DNA of 64,000 nucleotides from an uncultured bacterium (GTDB taxonomy: Bacteria; Verrucomicrobiota; Verrucomicrobiia; Verrucomicrobiales; V1-33): assembly GCA_903954065.1 (NCBI GenBank), contig CAJBME010000240.1, positions 8,732 through 72,731 of the forward strand, given 5' to 3'. Both the position numbers and the translations under genes were made by a program. Under the pieces are notes generated by a model. The model saw only the letters and a program-made list of their open reading frames with translations. It ran no database searches and was not told the DNA's origin. This document shows, in pieces, positions 1-40,979 of this stretch (positions are counted from its first letter, which is position 1; each line of letters begins with the position of its first letter).

Positions 1-513
1 ATATACGCGGGCCTCGCCGTAGCCGACGTGGCTGACCGGACGGGCCGCCGTCAACCCCGCCTTCACCGCCGCCACCGCCCGCTCGATGGCCGGCCGCGTG
101 ACCGCCTCCGCAAAAACGGGCGGAGCCAGACGGCGCGCCGCCAGCAATTGGGCGCTCGAAAAATCGCAGAGAGGCGCATCGTGCTGGTGCCCCGCATGCA
201 CCGCCACCCGCTCAGGCGTCGTTCCAGCAGCCTCCGCCAGAGCCGCGCGAAAGGCATCATGGCCAGCATTCGCAATCCCCAGCCAATCAACAGAACACAG
301 AACCACCGGATCGCCAGCCCCAGTCAAAACCAAGCCCCGGCAGCGCAGCGTGAGCACCCCCGCTTCCTTCATCGGATCGTACGCCAGCGCACTGCCCGCC
401 GCCGGGGTGGCATCACAGTCGAACACAGCCACTTTGAGATCGCCAGCCGCAGCCCCGCCCGTCATCAGGAAAACCATCAGAAAAAAACCAGAAAGCAGGA
501 TGGGGCCACGCAT
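1..513 (-). CDS. secreted hypothetical protein, N-terminal part only (gene runs off the left edge)
   Basis: Own reverse-strand translation from the ATG (complement of 511-513) gives MRGPILLSGFFLMVFLMTGGAAAGDLKVAVFDCDATPAAGSALAYDP...VAVHAGHQHDAP... It stays open for 171 codons to position 1. The N-terminus is hydrophobic and signal-like. It is absent from the ORF track because there is no stop in the window. Confidence 0.55.
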   Translation of the reverse strand, partial: MRGPILLSGFFLMVFLMTGGAAAGDLKVAVFDCDATPAAGSALAYDPMKEAGVLTLRCRGLVLTGAGDPVVLCSVDWLGIANAGHDAFRAALAEAAGTTPERVAVHAGHQHDAPLCDFSSAQLLAARRLAPPVFAEAVTRPAIERAVAAVKAGLTAARPVSHVGYGEARVY

Positions 514-559
514 GATGCAGGGTTGTCACACTTTCGTCCCCGAGGTAAGAAAAAAAAAA

Positions 560-3391
560 ATGTATCTCTCGCCCCACCATTCCGGCCTGCAGGCCATGGC
601 TTGGATTTTCACCGTCTGGTCGGGTCTGGCCGCTGAACCGCCGCTGGAGGATGACGACCTCCCCCGCCGCCCGCCGCTGAGCGCGAACCAAGCCATGGCC
701 GCGTTCAAGGTAGCCCCAGGGATGCGGATTGAACTGGCCGCCTGCGAACCGGCGATTGTTGATCCGGTGGCGCTGGATTTTGATGAAACGGGAGCGCTGT
801 ATGTGGTGGAAATGAGAGATTATTCTGAGCGGCGGGGTGAGAAATTATCGAGAATCAAACGACTGCGTGACCTCGATGGCGATGGTCTATTTGAGGAGTC
901 GACGGTTTTCCTGGACGGGCTGGCCTGGGCCACTGGCGTGACGTGTTGGGGGGGCGGCATTCTCGTCGCCAGCACTCCCGATATCATTTTTGCCCGCGAC
1001 GTGACCGGCGACGGGGTGGCGGACGAACGGCGGGTGGTATTGACGGGGTTTGGCGCCGGACGTGACGACTTAAATGTTCAGGCCTTGGTCAACAGCCTGA
1101 CGTTCGGACCGGACAACCGCATCTGGGGCGCCACCGCCGGCAATGGTGGCCAAGTGGCCGGAGTGTCTCTGAACGGCGCCGATTTTTCCTTCGATCCAGT
1201 AAGCTTCGAGCTGACCGCTGAGACCGGTACGGCCCAATTTGGATTGAGTTTTGACGCGGCAGGTCGGCGCTTTGTCTGTAGCAACAGCCACCACTTGCAA
1301 TGGGTGGCTCTGGAGCGCCCGTACGCCAACCACCCACTGGTGCGCGGGAGCCAGTCGCTGGTGGATATTGCTGTCGACGGCCCGGCGGCCCCAGTCTTTC
1401 GCCTCAGCCCCGAGGAGCCGTGGCGAGTGGTTCGGACCCGCTGGCGCGCATCCGGCGTGCTTCCCGGAATCATCGAAGGCGGCGGCCGCGCCTCCGGGTA
1501 TTTCACTTCAGCCAGTGGACTCTGCGTTTATACCGGCGACCTTATGCCCACCCTCTCCGGCCACGTCCTTGTCGGTGACGTCGGCAGCAATCTGGTGCAT
1601 CGGAAACGCCTGACCGAAACCGCCGAGGGACCACAAGCCGAACGACCGCCCGGCGAAGAAACCACAGAATTTCTGGCCTCCACGGACTCATGGTTTCGTC
1701 CGGTCGCCTGCGCCAACGGCCCGGATGGAGCGCTGTACGTCATCGACATGTATCGCGAAGTCATCGAACACCCGCAGTCACTGCCCGCCCCACTGAAGAG
1801 CCGACTCGATCTGAACAGCGGCCATGACCGCGGCCGCCTATACCGGATTCTTCCCGAACACGCCAGCCCTCGACGCCAGACGGACATTGGCTCGCTGGAA
1901 ACCACCGCGTTGGCCGCGCTGACCCGCCATCCCAACGGATGGCATCGCACAACTGCCCGCCGCCTCCTCACCGCGCGGCGCGACCCGACCGCCGCCGCTC
2001 CATTGCGCGCCGCTGGTGGCTTTGACGCTCTGGCCACGCTCGACGGTCTGGGCCTCGTGACGACGAATGATTTGCGCCAGGCACTGCAATCCGATACCGA
2101 GGCGGTCGTCCGGCTGGCCTTGAGACTGCTGGAAACCCGCCCGACGGACGCCCCCTCGCTTGCCTCTGATCTATCCAAGCTGGCGAAACATCCAGCCGCC
2201 TCGGTGCGGCGCCAGTGGGCATTATCGCTCGGCCGCCTGCCCCTGAAAAACCAAACCCTAGAGCGCGCCGCCCTATGGAACCAGCCATCGGCCCCATCGC
2301 GCCTGCGCGAAGCCGTTCGCCTGTCGCTTCGCTCCGGCCGAGATACCTTCGAACTGCTGCAAATTCTGAATGAGCCCGACCCCGAGCTGGTCGCCATGAT
2401 CGGTCGCAGTAAAGAAGCGGCCGCCATCGCAGAAACGGCCGAATGGCTGCACAGTCGCCTGCATGAATCTCCTGGCCGGCTTTTTGCCATGATCACAGCC
2501 TTGAACGACCGCGACACGCTGAGCCGGCTGACGGAAGCCGCGATCGCGTGTGTTCTCGACCCAGCAGCCAGCGCCTCCGACCGAACCTCCGCCGCGGCCG
2601 TGCTAGTGCGCGCGGGCGGCGGCGCAGCCACGGGGGCTCTGGAGCAGGTCTTTTTCGATCCCGCGGCTCCTGACCCGGTGCGAGCGGAAGCGTGGCCAGC
2701 GGTGACCGGAGCGAGGGCCAGCGACGTCTGGGCGGCCTGGCCCGGACTGAGTGCGTGGATGCGCGGTCGCGTGCTCGAACGTGCGGCGGCCACCTCTGAC
2801 TGGCACCAGCCATTGCTGACCGCCGTGGCCGACGGACGGATCGGTGCGCTCGAGCTCACAGCCGCCCAAGCGCAGCACCTTCGCGCATCGGCCGATCCAG
2901 TCGTCCAGCCGCTGGCCCTCACCGCCCTTGGTCCTCCGCCCCCCGACCGCCAAGCCGCCATCGCGGCCCGCCTGCCATTACTGAAACTCAACGGCGACGC
3001 CGCCGTCGGAGAAACCGTCTTCCGCCAGCGATGCCTGACTTGTCACCGTCTCGGCCAAGATGGCGCCGAAGTCGGTCCCGATCGCATTACCTTTCGCCAC
3101 CTTGGAAAACCCGCCCTGCTGGCCAGCGTGCTCGACCCCAATCGCGAAGTCGCCCCGCGCTTTCTCGCCGCCACCGTGACCACCACCACTGGAGAATCAT
3201 GGCAGGGGCTGCTGCAGCGGGACGACCCGACGGGAGTGACTTTGCGGCTCGCCGGAGGCCGCGAAATTGAATTAAGTCGCGCCAACATAACCCGCTTTGA
3301 ACGCCTGACCCGGTCCCTCATGCCGGAAGGACTGGAGACGGGCCTGAGCGAGGCCGAACTGGCGGGACTCTTGGAGTTTCTCGTTCAGTAA
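560..3391 (+). CDS. PVC-type heme-binding protein (membrane-bound-dehydrogenase-like domain, HEAT-like repeats, C-terminal cytochrome c CxxCH)
   Basis: Track ORF 86..3391. The first 158 codons are Arg/Ala-rich and overlap the divergent gene, so the start was moved to the in-frame ATG at 560 (MYLSPHHSGLQAMAWIFTVWSGLAA, signal-like). Motifs: DPVALDFDETGALYVVEMRDY, GPDGALYVIDMYREVIEHP, and C-terminal CLTCHRLGQDG. Confidence 0.85.
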   Translation: MYLSPHHSGLQAMAWIFTVWSGLAAEPPLEDDDLPRRPPLSANQAMAAFKVAPGMRIELAACEPAIVDPVALDFDETGALYVVEMRDYSERRGEKLSRIKRLRDLDGDGLFEESTVFLDGLAWATGVTCWGGGILVASTPDIIFARDVTGDGVADERRVVLTGFGAGRDDLNVQALVNSLTFGPDNRIWGATAGNGGQVAGVSLNGADFSFDPVSFELTAETGTAQFGLSFDAAGRRFVCSNSHHLQWVALERPYANHPLVRGSQSLVDIAVDGPAAPVFRLSPEEPWRVVRTRWRASGVLPGIIEGGGRASGYFTSASGLCVYTGDLMPTLSGHVLVGDVGSNLVHRKRLTETAEGPQAERPPGEETTEFLASTDSWFRPVACANGPDGALYVIDMYREVIEHPQSLPAPLKSRLDLNSGHDRGRLYRILPEHASPRRQTDIGSLETTALAALTRHPNGWHRTTARRLLTARRDPTAAAPLRAAGGFDALATLDGLGLVTTNDLRQALQSDTEAVVRLALRLLETRPTDAPSLASDLSKLAKHPAASVRRQWALSLGRLPLKNQTLERAALWNQPSAPSRLREAVRLSLRSGRDTFELLQILNEPDPELVAMIGRSKEAAAIAETAEWLHSRLHESPGRLFAMITALNDRDTLSRLTEAAIACVLDPAASASDRTSAAAVLVRAGGGAATGALEQVFFDPAAPDPVRAEAWPAVTGARASDVWAAWPGLSAWMRGRVLERAAATSDWHQPLLTAVADGRIGALELTAAQAQHLRASADPVVQPLALTALGPPPPDRQAAIAARLPLLKLNGDAAVGETVFRQRCLTCHRLGQDGAEVGPDRITFRHLGKPALLASVLDPNREVAPRFLAATVTTTTGESWQGLLQRDDPTGVTLRLAGGREIELSRANITRFERLTRSLMPEGLETGLSEAELAGLLEFLVQ

Positions 3392-8202: not shown

Positions 8203-8955
8203 ATGGCCGGCCACAGTAAATGGTCCAAAGTTAAGCACATCAAGGGCGTCGTTGACGTCAAACGCGGCAGGGTATTTTCCAAGTTGTCGCGCGAAATCAT
8301 CATGGCCGCCAAAGCTGGCGGGGGCGACCCGCGGCTCAACGCGCGCTTGCGCACCGCCATGGATGCGGCGCGGGCGCAGAACATGCCGAATGACACCATT
8401 GAACGCGCCATCAAAAAGGGCACAGGGGAACTGGGAGGGGAAGCCCCCTCTGAGATCACCTATGAAGGGTATGCGCCCGGAGGAGTCGCCATGATGGTGG
8501 AATGTGTCACCGACAATAAGAACCGCACATCCGCTGATCTGCGCAGCGTTTTCACCCGCAACCATGGCAGTCTCGGCACTCCCGGCAGTGTGACCCATCT
8601 TTTCTCCCGCAAAGGTGAAATCCGGCTCCCGCTGGCTTCGGCGGAAGAAGAAACCGTGCTGGAAGCCGCCTTGGAAGCGGGGGCGGATGATGTTTCACAT
8701 GACGGAGAAGACCATGTCATCCTGACCGCGCCCGACCAGCTTTTTGCCGTGGGTGACATCCTGAAGGCCCGTCATCTGACTCCCGCTTCGCAAAAACTCA
8801 TTTTTATCCCTCTGACCACCATTCCCGTCGTTGATTTGGCCACCGCACAGCAGGTCATTCGCCTTTACGAAGCACTGGATGATCTCGATGATGTTCAAAA
8901 CGTCCATTCAAACTTTGACATTCCTGACGAACTCATGGACCAGCTAGCCGTTTAA
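8203..8955 (+). CDS. yebC: YebC/PmpR-family DNA-binding transcriptional regulator
   Basis: MAGHSKWSKVKHIKGVVDVKRGRVFSKLSREI..., 250 aa, a typical family N-terminus and length. Confidence 0.95.
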   Translation: MAGHSKWSKVKHIKGVVDVKRGRVFSKLSREIIMAAKAGGGDPRLNARLRTAMDAARAQNMPNDTIERAIKKGTGELGGEAPSEITYEGYAPGGVAMMVECVTDNKNRTSADLRSVFTRNHGSLGTPGSVTHLFSRKGEIRLPLASAEEETVLEAALEAGADDVSHDGEDHVILTAPDQLFAVGDILKARHLTPASQKLIFIPLTTIPVVDLATAQQVIRLYEALDDLDDVQNVHSNFDIPDELMDQLAV

Positions 8956-35002: not shown

Positions 35003-35030
35003 TTGACAATCGTGATGTAGTTGTTATATT
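35003..35030 (+). promoter_or_regulatory. sigma70-like promoter for the pilin genes (TTGACA-16 nt-TATATT)
   Basis: TTGACA at 35003-35008 and TATATT at 35025-35030, inside the most AT-rich stretch I noticed in the window (about 34970-35100), roughly 70 nt upstream of the pilin ATG at 35102. Confidence 0.6.
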
Positions 35031-35101
35031 CACCATGTTTACTATACTTAGTCGTTTCGTTTATTCATTCATTCAATCAACCCGTTCACGTATTCTATCA
35101 C

Positions 35102-35479
35102 ATGAAAGTCCAAATCCAGAAAGCGAAGGCAGCCGGCTTCTCCCTTGTTGAATTGCTCGTCGTTATTGCTGTCATCGGCATCATGGCCGCCATCGCTATT
35201 CCGATGATTTCCAATATCAACGAGAAAGCGAAAACCGCGAAGAACAAGCGGAACGCCCAGAACATTGCCTCAGTGTACGGGGCCGCCACGGCGGCTGGGG
35301 CCACGATTACGGCCACCACGGCCGCGGCGGTGGTGACGGCGCTCTCGACAGGTGTGAATGGCGCGGACCAGTTTGCCGATACGAAGTTTCAGGTCAGCAT
35401 CTCCACCGCGGAAGACAAAACGGCAGCGGCGGCTCTGCTCAACGATCCGGTCGGCGGTGTCTTGACGACAAAATTCTAA
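35102..35479 (+). CDS. prepilin-type (type IV pilin-like) major subunit, copy 1
   Basis: MKVQIQKAKAAG|FSLVELLVVIAVIGIMAAIAIP shows the class III signal (G-1, F+1, E+5). 125 aa, Ala/Thr-rich, no Cys. The track ORF begins upstream at 35021. Confidence 0.88.
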   Translation: MKVQIQKAKAAGFSLVELLVVIAVIGIMAAIAIPMISNINEKAKTAKNKRNAQNIASVYGAATAAGATITATTAAAVVTALSTGVNGADQFADTKFQVSISTAEDKTAAAALLNDPVGGVLTTKF

Positions 35480-35530: not shown

Positions 35531-35566
35531 TAAGATAACGGCCACCAGCCGGTCAAATTCTATCAC

Positions 35567-35944
35567 ATGAAAGTCCAAATCCAGAAAGCGAAGACCGCCG
35601 GCTTCTCCCTTGTTGAATTGCTCGTCGTTATTGCCGTCATTGGCATCATGGCCGCCATCGCTATTCCGATGATTTCCAATATCAACGAGAAAGCGAAGAC
35701 CGCGAGGAACAAGCGGAACGCCCAGAACATTGCCTCAGTGTACGGGGCCGCCACGGCGGCTGGGGCCACGATTACAGCCACCACGGCCGCGGCGGTGGTG
35801 ACAGCGCTCTCGACAGGCGTGAATGGCGCCGACCAGTTTGCCGATACGAAGTTCCAGGTCAACATCACCACCGCGGAAGGCAAGACGGCGGCGGCGGCTC
35901 TGCTCAACGATCCGGTCGGCGGTGTCTTGACGACAAAATTCTAA
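35567..35944 (+). CDS. prepilin-type (type IV pilin-like) major subunit, copy 2
   Basis: 125 aa. Differs from copy 1 at 5 residues (A10T, K47R, S98N, S100T, D103G) and has the same class III signal. Confidence 0.88.
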   Translation: MKVQIQKAKTAGFSLVELLVVIAVIGIMAAIAIPMISNINEKAKTARNKRNAQNIASVYGAATAAGATITATTAAAVVTALSTGVNGADQFADTKFQVNITTAEGKTAAAALLNDPVGGVLTTKF

Positions 35945-37608: not shown

Positions 37609-39786
37609 ATGAATCAACTTCTGACTTCCAGAACGTCTCGTTACGGCAACCGGCTGGCGGCGCCGCGCCCCGGATCGGTCGACTCACTGCCGCCGGATCC
37701 CGCGACTGCCTTCCTCACCCCGGAACTCGAAGACGCGTCGGAAGCCGCCGCCTTGATGCCGCTGCGACTGCTGCGCGCGACCACCACCATGCCCGCGGAA
37801 ACAATGGTCCGCCATCTGGGGCGCCTGCCCCACACCGCCGAGCCGTGGCTGCCTCTAGCCACCCTCGGACCACTGCTGATCGTAGGGCATTATGACCCTG
37901 CCAGCAGTGACACTTGGGGACTGCCGTCGTTTCTCATCATCCGCACGCGCCTCTCCCAGAGCGATTACGCCGCAGTAGGTCAAGATTTGCAAAGCCGACT
38001 GACGCTCCATCCAATGGCCGCCACCAATCCCTTGGAGGGCACCCTGCACGCGCCGCCTCCCGTCGGCAGCCCCTTGGCCGCAGTTCTCGCTTGGTTCACA
38101 GAACAATACCCCTTTGCCTCCAGCGAAGACGCTGAGCGTATGCGCCGCCTAGTGGACGAAAACCGTGACAAGCCACTCCGGCGCCTCGAAGACATGCTGT
38201 TCCTGCCCCGCCACTATGGCGTGGCCCTCTACCATCTGGCCACCGGCCTGCCTGTCTTCAACCCGGAACTCGCGCCCGCTCAAGATCTTTTTCCACCGGA
38301 ACTGCTGGAAAAACACGGGGTTTACCCGCTCCACATCGGAGAAGACACGGTCCATTTGCTCTGCGCCAGCACCAGCATCTACGCCTTCGAGGATGAATGG
38401 CTCTCATCAGGCCACTCCGCCCTCTCGATGCAGCCAGTCCTCGCCGACCCCTCCGCCATCCGCGCGACCATCGCCCGCGACCGGTCAAGAGCCGCCCGCG
38501 CCACCACCACCCCCCAAGTCGGTGAACTCTACTTCTCGGATCAAGTCGAAAACCTCGTGGAAATCGATCCGGTCGACATCGCCCGCGTCAATCCCCAAAA
38601 TCCAAACCACACTCCGGAACAAGTCGTCCAGTGGATTCTCTGGCGGGCCATCACCATGCGCTCGTCCGATCTGCACGTGGAGAAATTTTACAACATGGCC
38701 CGATTTCGGGCCCGCGTGGACGGTGAGCTCGTCACGATTTATTCCTGCTCCGAGGAATACCTGCAGCGGTACGTAGCCATGTTTAAAAATTACTGCGGCA
38801 TGGGCCAGCAGCGACAGGACACGCAGGACGGACGGTTCTCCATCAGAATCGGCCAGCGCCGACTCGATGTGCGCGTGGCCGCCATCCCATGCCGTCGCGA
38901 ACAACAGAAACTCGTCATGCGGTTTCTGGATAAACAAGACGGCATTAAACAACTCTCAGAACTCAACCTCTCGCCACGACAGGCCGCCATCATCCGCGAC
39001 GTGACCCACCGCGATCAGGGACTCTGCCTCGTCACCGGACCGACCGGATCCGGCAAAACCACCACCCTCTACGCCTTCATCAACTCGATCAACAGCGAGA
39101 ACGTCAACATCCAAACCATCGAAGATCCGATCGAATACGAGATCGAGGGCATCAATCAAACGCAGACCGACCCGTACCACGGCATCACTTTTGCCACCGG
39201 CCTGCGCTCGTTGCTGCGCTGCGATCCGGATGTGATTCTCGTCGGCGAATCACGCGACCCGGAGACGGCCCAGGCGTCCATTAATGCCGCTCTGACCGGG
39301 CACCTCGTCTTCACCACCCTACATGCCAATGACTCGCTACGCGCCGTGTCGCGATTGATGAGCATGGGGGTCGAAAACTACCTGCTCGCGGACGCACTCT
39401 GCCTAAGCCAGGCCCAGCGGCTGGTGCGCCGCCTCTGTCCGTATTGTAAAGCAGCCACCCCCATCACCTCGGAAATTGCCGATCACCTCGGCCGCCATGG
39501 CGCCCTCAAGGACGGCCGCGTCCCGCCCACCCCCATTTACCAAAAAAGTGGATGCCCCGAATGCAACGGGGTCGGATACTCCGGTCGCGTGGCCCTCATG
39601 GAAATGTGCCCGGTCGATGCCGAGCTGCAAAACCTCGTCGCCACCGGAGCCAGCATGCAAAGCATGCGCGCCGTCGCCGTGCGATCTGGATTTCTCAGCC
39701 TGTACCAAGAAGGACTCGCGCATGTTCTCGCCGGCAACACCAGCTTCGAGGAAATTGCCTGCCTGAGTTACACCGCCGCACCGTAA
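37609..39786 (+). CDS. type II/IV secretion-family assembly ATPase (PilB/GspE-like)
   Basis: Walker A GPTGSGKTTTLYA, Asp box, Walker B ILVGESRD, His box TGHLVFTTLHAND and a tetracysteine CPYC...CPEC motif. The ~330-aa N-terminal region has two GSPII_E_N-like segments. Confidence 0.92.
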   Translation: MNQLLTSRTSRYGNRLAAPRPGSVDSLPPDPATAFLTPELEDASEAAALMPLRLLRATTTMPAETMVRHLGRLPHTAEPWLPLATLGPLLIVGHYDPASSDTWGLPSFLIIRTRLSQSDYAAVGQDLQSRLTLHPMAATNPLEGTLHAPPPVGSPLAAVLAWFTEQYPFASSEDAERMRRLVDENRDKPLRRLEDMLFLPRHYGVALYHLATGLPVFNPELAPAQDLFPPELLEKHGVYPLHIGEDTVHLLCASTSIYAFEDEWLSSGHSALSMQPVLADPSAIRATIARDRSRAARATTTPQVGELYFSDQVENLVEIDPVDIARVNPQNPNHTPEQVVQWILWRAITMRSSDLHVEKFYNMARFRARVDGELVTIYSCSEEYLQRYVAMFKNYCGMGQQRQDTQDGRFSIRIGQRRLDVRVAAIPCRREQQKLVMRFLDKQDGIKQLSELNLSPRQAAIIRDVTHRDQGLCLVTGPTGSGKTTTLYAFINSINSENVNIQTIEDPIEYEIEGINQTQTDPYHGITFATGLRSLLRCDPDVILVGESRDPETAQASINAALTGHLVFTTLHANDSLRAVSRLMSMGVENYLLADALCLSQAQRLVRRLCPYCKAATPITSEIADHLGRHGALKDGRVPPTPIYQKSGCPECNGVGYSGRVALMEMCPVDAELQNLVATGASMQSMRAVAVRSGFLSLYQEGLAHVLAGNTSFEEIACLSYTAAP

Positions 39787-39793
39787 AGGAACA

Positions 39794-40048
39794 GTGGCAA
39801 GCCCTCGTCGGGAAGTTAATCAACTTCCCGCTGGCCGGATACGCCGGCCCCGGTTTCCACACTTGGCCTTCGGGCCACATCCCTCAAGACACGGCTCTGA
39901 ATCCGCTTCTTCGCATCCGACCCCCTACCAAAAAAAGGTTCGGAGAGACGTTCGGCGCCGCGACCGGGGTCAGCGACCCACGGCTACAAAAGATCTGGAT
40001 CCGAAACGATTACGCAGGTCCGTTAACTTCCCGACGAGGGCTTGCCAC
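39794..40048 (+). repeat. 255-bp element bounded by perfect 26-bp inverted repeats (structured RNA, giant terminator or MITE-like element)
   Basis: gtggcaagccctcgtcgggaagttaa (39794-39819) is the exact reverse complement of ttaacttcccgacgagggcttgccac (40023-40048). Internal hairpins include tggcc-ttcg-ggcca (39864-39877) and gggaagtt-aatc-aacttccc (39810-39829). Confidence 0.85.
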
Positions 40049-40196
40049 CTATTTTGCGAAATTCCCAAGGCGATACCCTGGGTTTGGGCCGTAAAACGAT
40101 GCCGATCCTACCGGGGCGGAATGAAAGGGTGGCTTTCTGGCCGATGAGAGTGGCAGGGTCAGAGGCGCCGAGTGAACCAAGACAAGGCGGTCCGCC

Positions 40197-40979
40197 TCAA
40201 GCCGGAACCGGCAACGGGGAAGTCAGCCGCGCGCGAGGCGTCAAGATTTCCGGGTCCCCCTGGGTGATGAGAACCGTATGCTCAAAGTGACTGCTCGGAC
40301 GGCCGTCGACAGTAACCGCCGTCCAGTTGTCGGCCAAAACGCGCGTTTTACCGCGACCCATGTTGATCATGGGTTCGATGGCGAGAATCATGCCGGCCTT
40401 CAGTTTGGTCCTGATAGACGGGTCGGCCCAGTTGGGCACTTGCGGTTCTTCGTGGAGTCGGCGTCCGACCCCATGACCCACGAATTGCCGGACGACACTA
40501 AACCCATGGCGGGTCACCAGTTTTTCGACGGCACCGCACAGATCACGCAGGCTGTTGTTATGACGCGCGAATGAAATAGCGGCGTCTAGGGAGTCCTCGG
40601 TAGCCTGCAGTAAACGCCACGTTTCAGGATCGATGTCGCCCACCGGCACGGTCATGGCATTATCCCCGACCCAGCCGTTGAGATAAACACCGACATCAAG
40701 CTTCACAATGTCGCCGTCACGGATAATCCGCGACGATCTCCCGATGCCATGCACGACTTCGTCGTTCAACGAAATACAGATATTAGCCGGGTAGTTACGG
40801 TACCCAAGGAATGCGCTGGTGCAGCCGTTCTCGCGAATGAGGTCAGCCGCCAGTCGATCGACCTCAGCGGTGGAGATCCCGGCACGAACCTGAGTGGCGA
40901 CAAGCCCCAGAATCTTGGCGGCTGCATGACCCGCCTGCCTCATCCCCTCAATTTCCTTTCCCTGGCGTAAGTGAATCAC
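40197..40979 (-). CDS. map: type I methionyl aminopeptidase
   Basis: KEIEGMRQAGHAAAKIL, VHGIG, metal ligands in DIVKLDVGV..GWVGD, FVGHGVG and EPMI. The start is GTG 40979 or TTG 41009. Confidence 0.93.
   Translation of the reverse strand: MIHLRQGKEIEGMRQAGHAAAKILGLVATQVRAGISTAEVDRLAADLIRENGCTSAFLGYRNYPANICISLNDEVVHGIGRSSRIIRDGDIVKLDVGVYLNGWVGDNAMTVPVGDIDPETWRLLQATEDSLDAAISFARHNNSLRDLCGAVEKLVTRHGFSVVRQFVGHGVGRRLHEEPQVPNWADPSIRTKLKAGMILAIEPMINMGRGKTRVLADNWTAVTVDGRPSSHFEHTVLITQGDPEILTPRARLTSPLPVPA

Follow-up and report, generated by a model that had tools for sequence, protein, structure and literature searches.

BOX elements of Streptococcus pneumoniae are built as boxA-(boxB)n-boxC, with units of about 45 nt and without GTAG-tagged stem-loops, and in the BIMEs of E. 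coli REPs of alternating orientation are joined by short linkers. Liang, Rudd and Deutscher reportedly found in 2015 that E. coli REPs near stop codons lead to ribosome stalling and trans-translation.

Nearer to the case considered here are the GTAG REPs, which are found in Verrucomicrobia; they make up head-to-head dimers in which the spacer is conserved and structured, as well as tandem clusters of such dimers together with flanking DNA (PMC3733652). GTAG repeats abound in the verrucomicrobium Opitutus terrae, among them the families GTAG-17 to -20 (Di Nocera, De Gregorio & Rocco 2013, PMC3733652). REPINs, and tandem clusters of them, have been described in Pseudomonas fluorescens SBW25 (Bertels & Rainey 2011, PMC3116915). 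As to enzymes, E. coli TnpA(REP) needs in vitro a bulged imperfect palindrome located after a conserved motif (PMC8266576), and in the TIRtrons, or TIRYT, genes for RayT-like tyrosine transposases lie between inverted repeats with GGGGWSAS (PMC3733652).

The subject of this report is a 255-bp hairpin-rich element at 39794-40048 of a 64,000-nt stretch of DNA from an uncultured member of the Verrucomicrobiales (the whole stretch is referred to as the window), where it is positioned between a secretion ATPase gene and map. An earlier sequence-only reading had left three options for it: a bidirectional terminator with a very long stem, a structured small RNA, or a non-autonomous mobile element of the MITE or REP kind. 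Rather than a unique RNA gene or a dedicated terminator, the element is very probably a copy of a GTAG-tagged REP-type repeat family of Verrucomicrobiales that is modular, extragenic and numerous, with the organization of a head-to-head dimer, or REPIN, that elsewhere forms tandem arrays.

The inverted repeat and its genes

On the plus strand an ORF of 725 aa (37609-39786, stop codon TAA) specifies an ATPase of the T2SSE/GspE type (Pfam PF00437), and convergent with it, on the minus strand, is the gene for an M24 methionine aminopeptidase (map, 40197-40979), after which comes secY. Nearly all of the 410-nt spacer between the ATPase gene and map is repeat-derived, with family-related sequence running past 40048 to about 40104. 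The left arm, GTGGCAAGCCCTCGTCGGGAAGTTAA (39794-39819), begins 8 nt past the ATPase TAA and the right arm, TTAACTTCCCGACGAGGGCTTGCCAC (40023-40048), is followed directly by ctattttg; the arms are 26 nt in length, 100% complementary and have 203 nt between them. In these respects the element is as had been described from the letters, and the same holds for the flanks, aaggaaca on the left and ctattttg on the right, which have neither a direct repeat nor a target-site duplication.

When the 26-mer was sought with up to 3 mismatches, the two arms were its only sites in the 64-kb window, the number expected from 100 shuffles being 0.00. The three GC hairpins that had been singled out in the interior are all present: the UUCG-capped tggcc-ttcg-ggcca at 39864-39877, ggccgg-atacg-ccggcc at 39833-39849 and gggtc-agc-gaccc at 39966-39978. 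Relative to shuffled sequences the folding of the element has z values of -7.1 (plus strand) and -6.9 (minus strand) as RNA and of -6.4 as DNA. Chance gives nothing comparable to a GC-hairpin-rich interior of this kind within a perfect 26-bp inverted repeat.

REP doublets, arrays and bracketing modules

The core 20-mer CCGTGGGTCGCTGACCCCGG, from the minus strand of the window, led to 65 metagenome loci, 62 of them true members of the family, with 57 from one metagenome. Dispersed copies in number were what the sequence-only reading had considered the mark of an ordinary repeat family rather than of a functional RNA, and the 62 loci are just that. Many of the loci are at contig ends, and in many the units are repeated in tandem, 2-4 or more of them, the period being 204-206 nt and the largest count 4.1 copies; nhmmer delineated 143 unit segments in the loci to which it was applied. 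When 185,579 species-representative genomes were searched for exact matches to a 21-mer from the arm, one true match came up: L006, a Verrucomicrobiales MAG in which 213 nt are 87% identical to the window but lie among unrelated genes and lack the second arm. Both searches also gave chance matches to coding sequence, which were rejected (L014, L022 and L053 from the metagenome scan, L007 and L008 from that with the arm 21-mer). In two other long contigs an array is met about every 10-20 kb, copies having been counted across metagenome contigs. The window itself has no second copy, either of the 26-mer with up to 3 mismatches or in a blastn search with the family, and there were no matches in viral contigs (two patterns), in phage records or in plasmid records.

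Five independent metagenome contigs with an identical ATPase all stop inside the element, at window positions 39838-39897, with two of the five differing in sequence within it, and 3 further contigs, of a 99%-identical strain, also stop inside it; of the independent contigs carrying the ATPase, 8 of 11 end within the element. Assemblers break at repeats, and copies elsewhere account for these ends. Breaks inside an element with perfect inverted repeats around a short segment might also bring to mind an invertible DNA switch, in which the 26-bp repeats would be recombination sites and the 203-bp interior would flip between them. That such an inverton is involved is, however, exceedingly improbable: in addition to the breaks having their explanation in the repeat copies, the interior has one orientation in the window and in 11 of 11 contigs that enter the element, the same inverted repeats enclose arrays of different lengths, and the neighbouring genes revealed no recombinase.

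Each unit of the family has two related stem-loops, GTAGCCGTGGGTCGCTGACCCCGG and GTAGCCGGGTACGCCGGCCCCGG, inverted with respect to each other, GTAG-tagged and about 110 nt apart; the window has a single doublet only. REP1 (GTAGCCGTGGGTCGCTGACCCCGG, minus strand, 39964-39987) comprises the GTAG tag and an imperfect palindrome with a bulged T, CCG(T)GGGTC-GCT-GACCCCGG, yielding an 8-bp stem with one bulge and a 3-nt loop. Nowhere is the family more conserved than in REP1, which sits in a 47-nt block that is identical in the window and L006; the core 20-mer was taken from this block. The second REP-like stem-loop, REP2', has in the family the form GTAG-CCGGGTACGCCGGCCCCGG, on the strand opposite to that of REP1 in the same unit, with the stem-loop GCCGG-GTACG-CCGGC; in the window (CTGGCCGGATACGCCGGCCCCGG, plus strand, 39831-39853) its tag has decayed from GTAG to CTGG, as is the case in terminal units of the family. 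With a search pattern that left out the tag, GTAG was found directly before 88 of the 97 REP1 bodies in the loci examined, and before the 96 REP2' bodies there was GTAG in 72 and CTGG in 17, the latter including the window copy and those at the 3' ends of terminated arrays. Between the REPs is a conserved structured spacer (39854-39963) with the UUCG-capped hairpin (39864-39877) and an A7/T7 run at 39933-39939; the identity of the spacer region is 92% to a unit of L061 and, over the 213 nt mentioned, 87% to L006, with the changes mostly in hairpin loops.

The inverted similarity of REP1 and REP2' has a score of 24 versus 12.1 +/- 1.8 for dinucleotide shuffles, none of 2000 of which reached 24. 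Both end heptamers are common to the two, 20 of 25 positions are identical, and the central parts have diverged. Folding of the alignment predicts a long-range helix between the REPs (columns 44-63 with 199-219), and helix 1 is paired in 99.1% of cells. The family has what marks a REP, namely a short imperfect palindrome forming a stem-loop, a terminal GTAG beside it, and both dimers and tandem clusters of dimers, as well as what marks a REPIN, namely two inverted REPs with a spacer and a predicted single hairpin.

Read in the family sense, which corresponds to the minus strand of the window, an array consists of a leader, n units of about 205 nt and a trailer. The conserved 5' leader is GCCCTCGTCGGGAAGTTAACTTACCTGCGTAGTCGTTTCGTATTC, and its first part is the right arm: the minus strand of 40023-40048 is the leader (GTG)GCAAGCCCTCGTCGGGAAGTTAA, common to L006, L012, L018, L030, L038, L042, L043, L052, L059, L065 and L086. 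The leader or linker segment next to it (39988-40022, minus strand CGGACCTGCGTAATCGTTTCGGATCCAGATCTTTT) is homologous to the family leader ACTTACCTGCGTAGTCGTTTCGTATTC. At their 3' ends arrays stop at unit position 164 and continue into a trailer, CAGC-GGGAAGT-NN-ACTTCCC-..., with GGGAAGT-NN-ACTTCCC being present in 15 of 15 terminated arrays examined. Leader and trailer each hold a variously decayed copy of the palindrome CTCGTC-GGGAAGTT..AACTTCCC-GACGAG, and in every member the outer half of the one is complementary to that of the other; an intact solo copy of the full bracketing palindrome is in L068. In the family sense the left arm (39794-39819) forms the outer, right-hand half of the palindrome that brackets the 3' end, and a trailer ...CAGCGGGAAGTT..AACTTCCCGACGAGGGCTTGCCA, as in the left arm, closes arrays in L060 and L086. 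In L086 a perfect 19-bp inverted repeat of the same sequence surrounds a 3-unit array, and in L085 an inverted repeat of about 47 bp (43/47), with a second terminus type, surrounds a 2-unit array and is without a target-site duplication.

This anatomy bears on the either/or structure that had been perceived in the element. The motif AACTTCCCG does occur twice, at 39822 and 40025, and CGGGAAGTT at 39809-39817 can pair locally with the first of these (39822-39830), the resulting palindrome CGGGAAGTT-aatc-AACTTCCCG (39809-39830) being a competitor of the long-range stem. The competing pairings are real enough; what they reflect is two copies of one palindromic module, not a riboswitch-like design. 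The local palindrome is a copy of the bracketing module (P), and the long 26-bp stem and the local hairpin competing with it are there because the outer halves of the two module copies happen to be complementary. The pairing is of the either/or type because the distal arm makes up one half of a palindrome and has the other half beside it.

Beyond the right arm, 40049-40104 has an adjoining module, with the hairpin CCCAAGG-cgatac-CCTGGG and GGGCCGTAAAAC, that is also present, in either orientation, in the flanks of other family copies (L020, L038, L060 and L086) and is probably the remnant of a neighbouring element end. Window positions 40069-40101 match L006 2258-2290; inversion of this motif between the window and L006 was considered and rejected, since it is a quasi-palindromic hairpin module found at either end of elements.

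The terminal position of the perfect 26-bp inverted repeats, the small size of the element, the dispersal of the family and the bracketing of other copies by inverted repeats of 19-47 bp are all features that a classical MITE would have, that is, a deletion derivative of an IS with a DDE transposase that is moved in trans via its termini. The mobile-element option of the sequence-only reading was correct to the extent of there being a dispersed repeat family, with 62 loci, tandem arrays and the 292 spurious ORFs considered below. A strict MITE is nevertheless improbable. There is no target-site duplication here or at L085, the interior consists of tandem units that vary in number, and at least two terminus types are mixed between both ends. 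Moreover no parent IS was found, the exact arm 21-mer revealing no transposase-carrying element in the 185,579 species-representative genomes, and the strongest conservation is internal, in the GTAG stem-loop, not at the termini. In the case of a GTAG-tagged REP family, copies would spread as single-stranded DNA hairpins by means of a RayT/TnpA(REP)-type HUH tyrosine transposase, a putative mechanism that would explain the absence of target-site duplications because it leaves none, and the arrays may have grown by unequal recombination or slippage.

Evolution of the locus and tests for RNA, termination and coding

Three assemblies of a sister strain read through the element and have it at the same site. 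Its divergence from the window is 3.5-4.7%, versus 2.4-2.5% for the ATPase CDS, and in two of the three assemblies there is one change in each arm (at 39808, and at 40045 or 40040) with the pairing partner uncompensated. Since these arm changes are uncompensated, the perfect stem is not being maintained. A more distant pair of contigs, L075 and L076 (82% protein identity), has the synteny ATPase-map-secY with a 602-nt spacer, and this orthologous spacer has no copy of the element. (L074 and L077 were discarded as orthologous loci on account of different downstream genes.) No pair of filled and empty sites, which would be a sign of mobility, was recovered.

The genes that face arrays do so by 47 3' ends versus 18 5' ends (p = 4e-4, with a rough ORF model), and relative to the genes facing by their 3' ends the element is in one orientation 25 times and in the other 22 times. 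The pattern of location and evolution is that expected of a selfish or neutral extragenic repeat which is tolerated downstream of genes, not that expected of a strand-specific RNA.

Might the element or its relatives nonetheless be the gene, or gene array, for a structured non-coding RNA with a long closing stem and a switch between local and distal pairing? The very low folding energies (z about -7), the keeping of hairpins across copies (97.6% of helix cells stay paired), the concentration of variation in loops with some transitions compatible with G-U pairing in the minus-strand sense, and an AT-rich, promoter-like region upstream in L006 can all be cited for it. Against it, Rfam 15 gave no match to the repeat on either strand, be it for the whole window at the gathering threshold, for 39600-40300 even at E <= 10, or for 20 related loci at the gathering threshold. 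Covariation is weak, at -0.61 kcal/mol for one strand and +0.07 for the other in alignment folds of 43 units with a double change in 6 of 40 pairs, although the copies compared, 80-95% identical, are too similar for this to be informative. The closing stem gains uncompensated mismatches in sister strains, the orthologous locus of the relative is without the element, both orientations relative to neighbouring genes are found, and there is no sigma-70-like promoter in 39500-40400. On this evidence an RNA gene, the structured small RNA of the sequence-only reading, is no more probable than a MITE, though with helices mostly kept some function of the family at the RNA level stays conceivable. The same searches registered an unrelated tmRNA in L051 and tRNAs in L060, the only Rfam matches in the related loci, and with ARAGORN the window gave neither a tRNA nor a tmRNA.

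A primary role as bidirectional terminator, or in stabilizing the 3' ends of RNAs, at the junction where the ATPase gene and map converge has the position of the element to recommend it: it fills the spacer of two convergent genes, its stem starts 8 nt past the ATPase stop codon, its right arm is followed by CUAUUUUG, and its family favours gene 3' ends. REPs have also been reported to stabilize upstream mRNA and to attenuate transcription (PMC3733652). Yet a consensus scan of 39500-40400 found no canonical intrinsic terminator inside the element, its 2 sites (versus 1.3 expected) being minus-strand ones outside it, close to the stop codon of map, at 40199-40183 and 40114-40102. In addition, the 26-bp stem closes a 'loop' of 203 nt, the relative represented by L075 and L076 manages the same convergent junction without the element, and selection against insertions into promoters would lead one to expect the same bias towards 3' ends. 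The proposal of a long-stemmed terminator accordingly fares slightly worse than that of an RNA gene and is quite improbable. As a member of a GTAG-tagged REP family the element is probably at most an incidental barrier, or stabilizer of RNA 3' ends, between the two genes.

The antisense strand of the unit is nearly without stop codons, and its conceptual translation matched 292 'proteins', nearly all of them singleton clusters, of which 291 have no Pfam domain and for which the named entries are almost all 'hypothetical protein'. These products are mis-called ORFs over the repeat in JGI, ENA and NCBI data. A coding repeat is ruled out by the periods of 204-206 nt with indels, by the Arg/Pro-rich reading frames and by that lack of Pfam domains in 291 of 292; the ORFs across the element had been dismissed from the start as Arg/Pro-rich and not credible.

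A candidate transposase and the place of the family among known repeats

There is no Y1 transposase gene in the 64-kb window. L086 (ERZ27313515, from a sample shared with one of the window-identical contigs) has, in addition to its 3-unit array, a gene for a Y1_Tnp protein of 353 aa, with 60.8 bits against the NCBIfam model REP_Tyr_transpos (below the cutoff of 80). Its family has 4546 matches at E <= 1e-20, is strongly conserved in Verrucomicrobiales, with 65-97% identity among the best matches listed (Prosthecobacter included), and is called 'REP element-mobilizing transposase RayT' by the sources. Two distinct genomic contexts have the gene bounded by the same 24-bp inverted repeat, GGGGTCAGTGTGCAAATCTTGACA, which has GGGGTCAG[C/T]G (9/10 nt) in common with the reverse complement of REP1, CCGGGGTCAGCGACCC. 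None of the RayT-like genes examined (L086-L097) is flanked by REP1 or REP2', a different repeat bounding them. The sharing of GGGGTCAG[C/T]G is a lead to a possible partner enzyme, not proof of one.

A bolder proposal would be that the bracketed arrays of REP doublets are a distinct composite class of non-autonomous elements, mobilized or maintained by the 353-aa RayT-like enzyme through GGGGTCAG[C/T]G, with the inverted repeats of the transposase gene being versions of the REP in which the loop is expanded, and/or that the arrays are transcribed into abundant structured RNAs with a function for the host. This is unlikely, if somewhat less so than the rival explanations of the window element considered above.

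In practice the family matters for assembly and annotation. Metagenome assemblies of Verrucomicrobiales from fresh water and soil are broken by it, and public protein collections contain at least 292 bogus 'hypothetical proteins' that stem from it; recognizing it prevents such loci from being mis-called as novel RNAs, terminators or invertons. The conserved RayT-like gene family is a candidate partner, and the two may constitute a tractable system for REPIN-RAYT co-evolution outside the Proteobacteria. Current concepts are unchanged by it.

Comparison with the BOX elements and BIMEs reveals a likeness of plan, with variable internal tandem units between partly complementary end modules, a probably high copy number, intergenic location and long-stem folding, but no sequence relationship to the window family. 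The REPINs of SBW25 likewise have two inverted REPs and a spacer, with a long hairpin predicted in single-stranded DNA or RNA. They differ in that, of the two, SBW25 is the one for which a cognate REP-flanked RAYT and excision intermediates have been demonstrated, and in that the REPs here have diverged centrally, with 20 of 25 positions identical. The TIRtrons, or TIRYT, are approached in that Verrucomicrobiales contigs, including L086, encode the 353-aa Y1_Tnp between copies of GGGGTCAGTGTGCAAATCTTGACA, which fits GGGGWSAS, as does GGGGTCAGCG within the reverse complement of REP1; the difference is that the repeat and the REP share just 9 of 10 nt and that the copies of the transposase gene are not flanked by the REP itself.

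The closest resemblance is to the GTAG REPs, with which the family shares the short GC-rich imperfect palindrome with terminal GTAG, the inverted heterodimers with GTAG termini on the outside and a conserved structured spacer, the repetition of dimer clusters in tandem together with flanking DNA, and the extragenic location with gene 3' ends favoured and no target-site duplications. It departs from those of O. terrae in that, compared by peptides, the listed VGPALAAG and GTGVPPV fit no frame of the window REP. Its spacer of about 110 nt and unit of about 205 nt exceed the usual 20-100 bp and fall at the upper end of the sizes described for REP dimers, and its arrays are also bracketed by a second palindromic module able to form a terminal inverted repeat of 19-47 bp. 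The REP/REPIN/BIME kind of repeat is well known, and what is new is the presence, in uncultured Verrucomicrobiales, of GTAG-tagged REP/REPIN-type repeats with unusually large 205-nt units and with inverted repeats that bracket them.

The gene cluster and the spacer between the ATPase gene and map

Within the pilus/T2SS-like cluster of the window, two adjacent paralogous small ORFs (35021-35479 and 35534-35944, + strand; called as 125-aa genes on the contig) lie upstream of the pseudopilin (N_methyl) genes, and both match a single gene (511-705) of L075, the syntenic 82%-identical relative, at 82% nucleotide identity. The pair is a tandem gene duplication. The repeat family is absent from the orthologous ATPase-map spacer, 602 nt long, of that relative (L075:5290-5760). 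Other long GC-rich inverted repeats are present there, such as GGAGTGCCG...CGGCACTCC, and these are possibly a separate repeat family. Sister strains also differ at the 3' end of map (window 40160-40196 versus L079:5552-5613), the product being 260 aa in the window and 248 aa at the sister-strain locus, with complete sequence divergence of the two from about 40155 of the window onward, just past the repeat-derived spacer.

Variation within the unit and neighbors of its copies

Directly ahead of the T-run in the family unit is an 11-12 nt sub-repeat, CTCTCCGAACG(Y), with 0 to 5 tandem copies across members, most having 1 or 2. Its site, seen at L073:1490-1540 and at the equivalent unit position in three other family loci (L028, L066 and L039), is a microsatellite-like hot spot.

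Several family arrays have tmRNA or tRNA genes immediately upstream (L051:2040-2390, L060:1735-1808 and 2184-2255, L086:~8780-8865(-)); in L051 and L060 these are Rfam matches, and in L086 the evidence is a tRNA likeness judged by eye. The repeat copy in a Verrucomicrobiales MAG locus is followed, about 600 nt downstream, by a 308-aa ORF (L006:3162-4088, + strand; start MHQPHDKLFKAGF), presumably akin to the Rpn/YhgA-like (PD-(D/E)XK) recombination-promoting nucleases.

RayT-like genes and palindromes

The contig with a three-unit array, L086, also has a conserved RayT-like Y1_Tnp gene of 353 aa (362-1423(-)), present too in L087-L097. GGGGTCAGTGTGCAAATCTTGACA flanks the gene on both sides as a perfect 24-bp inverted repeat (328-351 and 1452-1475). 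The same repeat brackets RayT-like genes of 84-97% identity in two unrelated gene contexts. A search at E <= 1e-20 gave 4546 matches to the protein family, Prosthecobacter included, with 65-97% identity among the best matches listed. Upstream of the RayT-like gene of L092 an additional incomplete inverted-repeat tip, AAAATGGGGTCAGCGA (2420-2475), immediately precedes the full repeat. Within this tip, the 11-mer GGGGTCAGCGA exactly matches the reverse complement of the repeat family's REP1, its most conserved GTAG stem-loop.

In the bracketing palindrome at the array ends CGTC/GACG adjoins the GGGAAGTT stem (window 39803-39808 and 40034-40039). This recalls, as a resemblance only, the 'CGTC-tagged' palindromic repeats of the second published superfamily. 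The 24-bp repeat of the RayT-like gene conforms to the published 'TIRYT' motif, GGGGWSAS.
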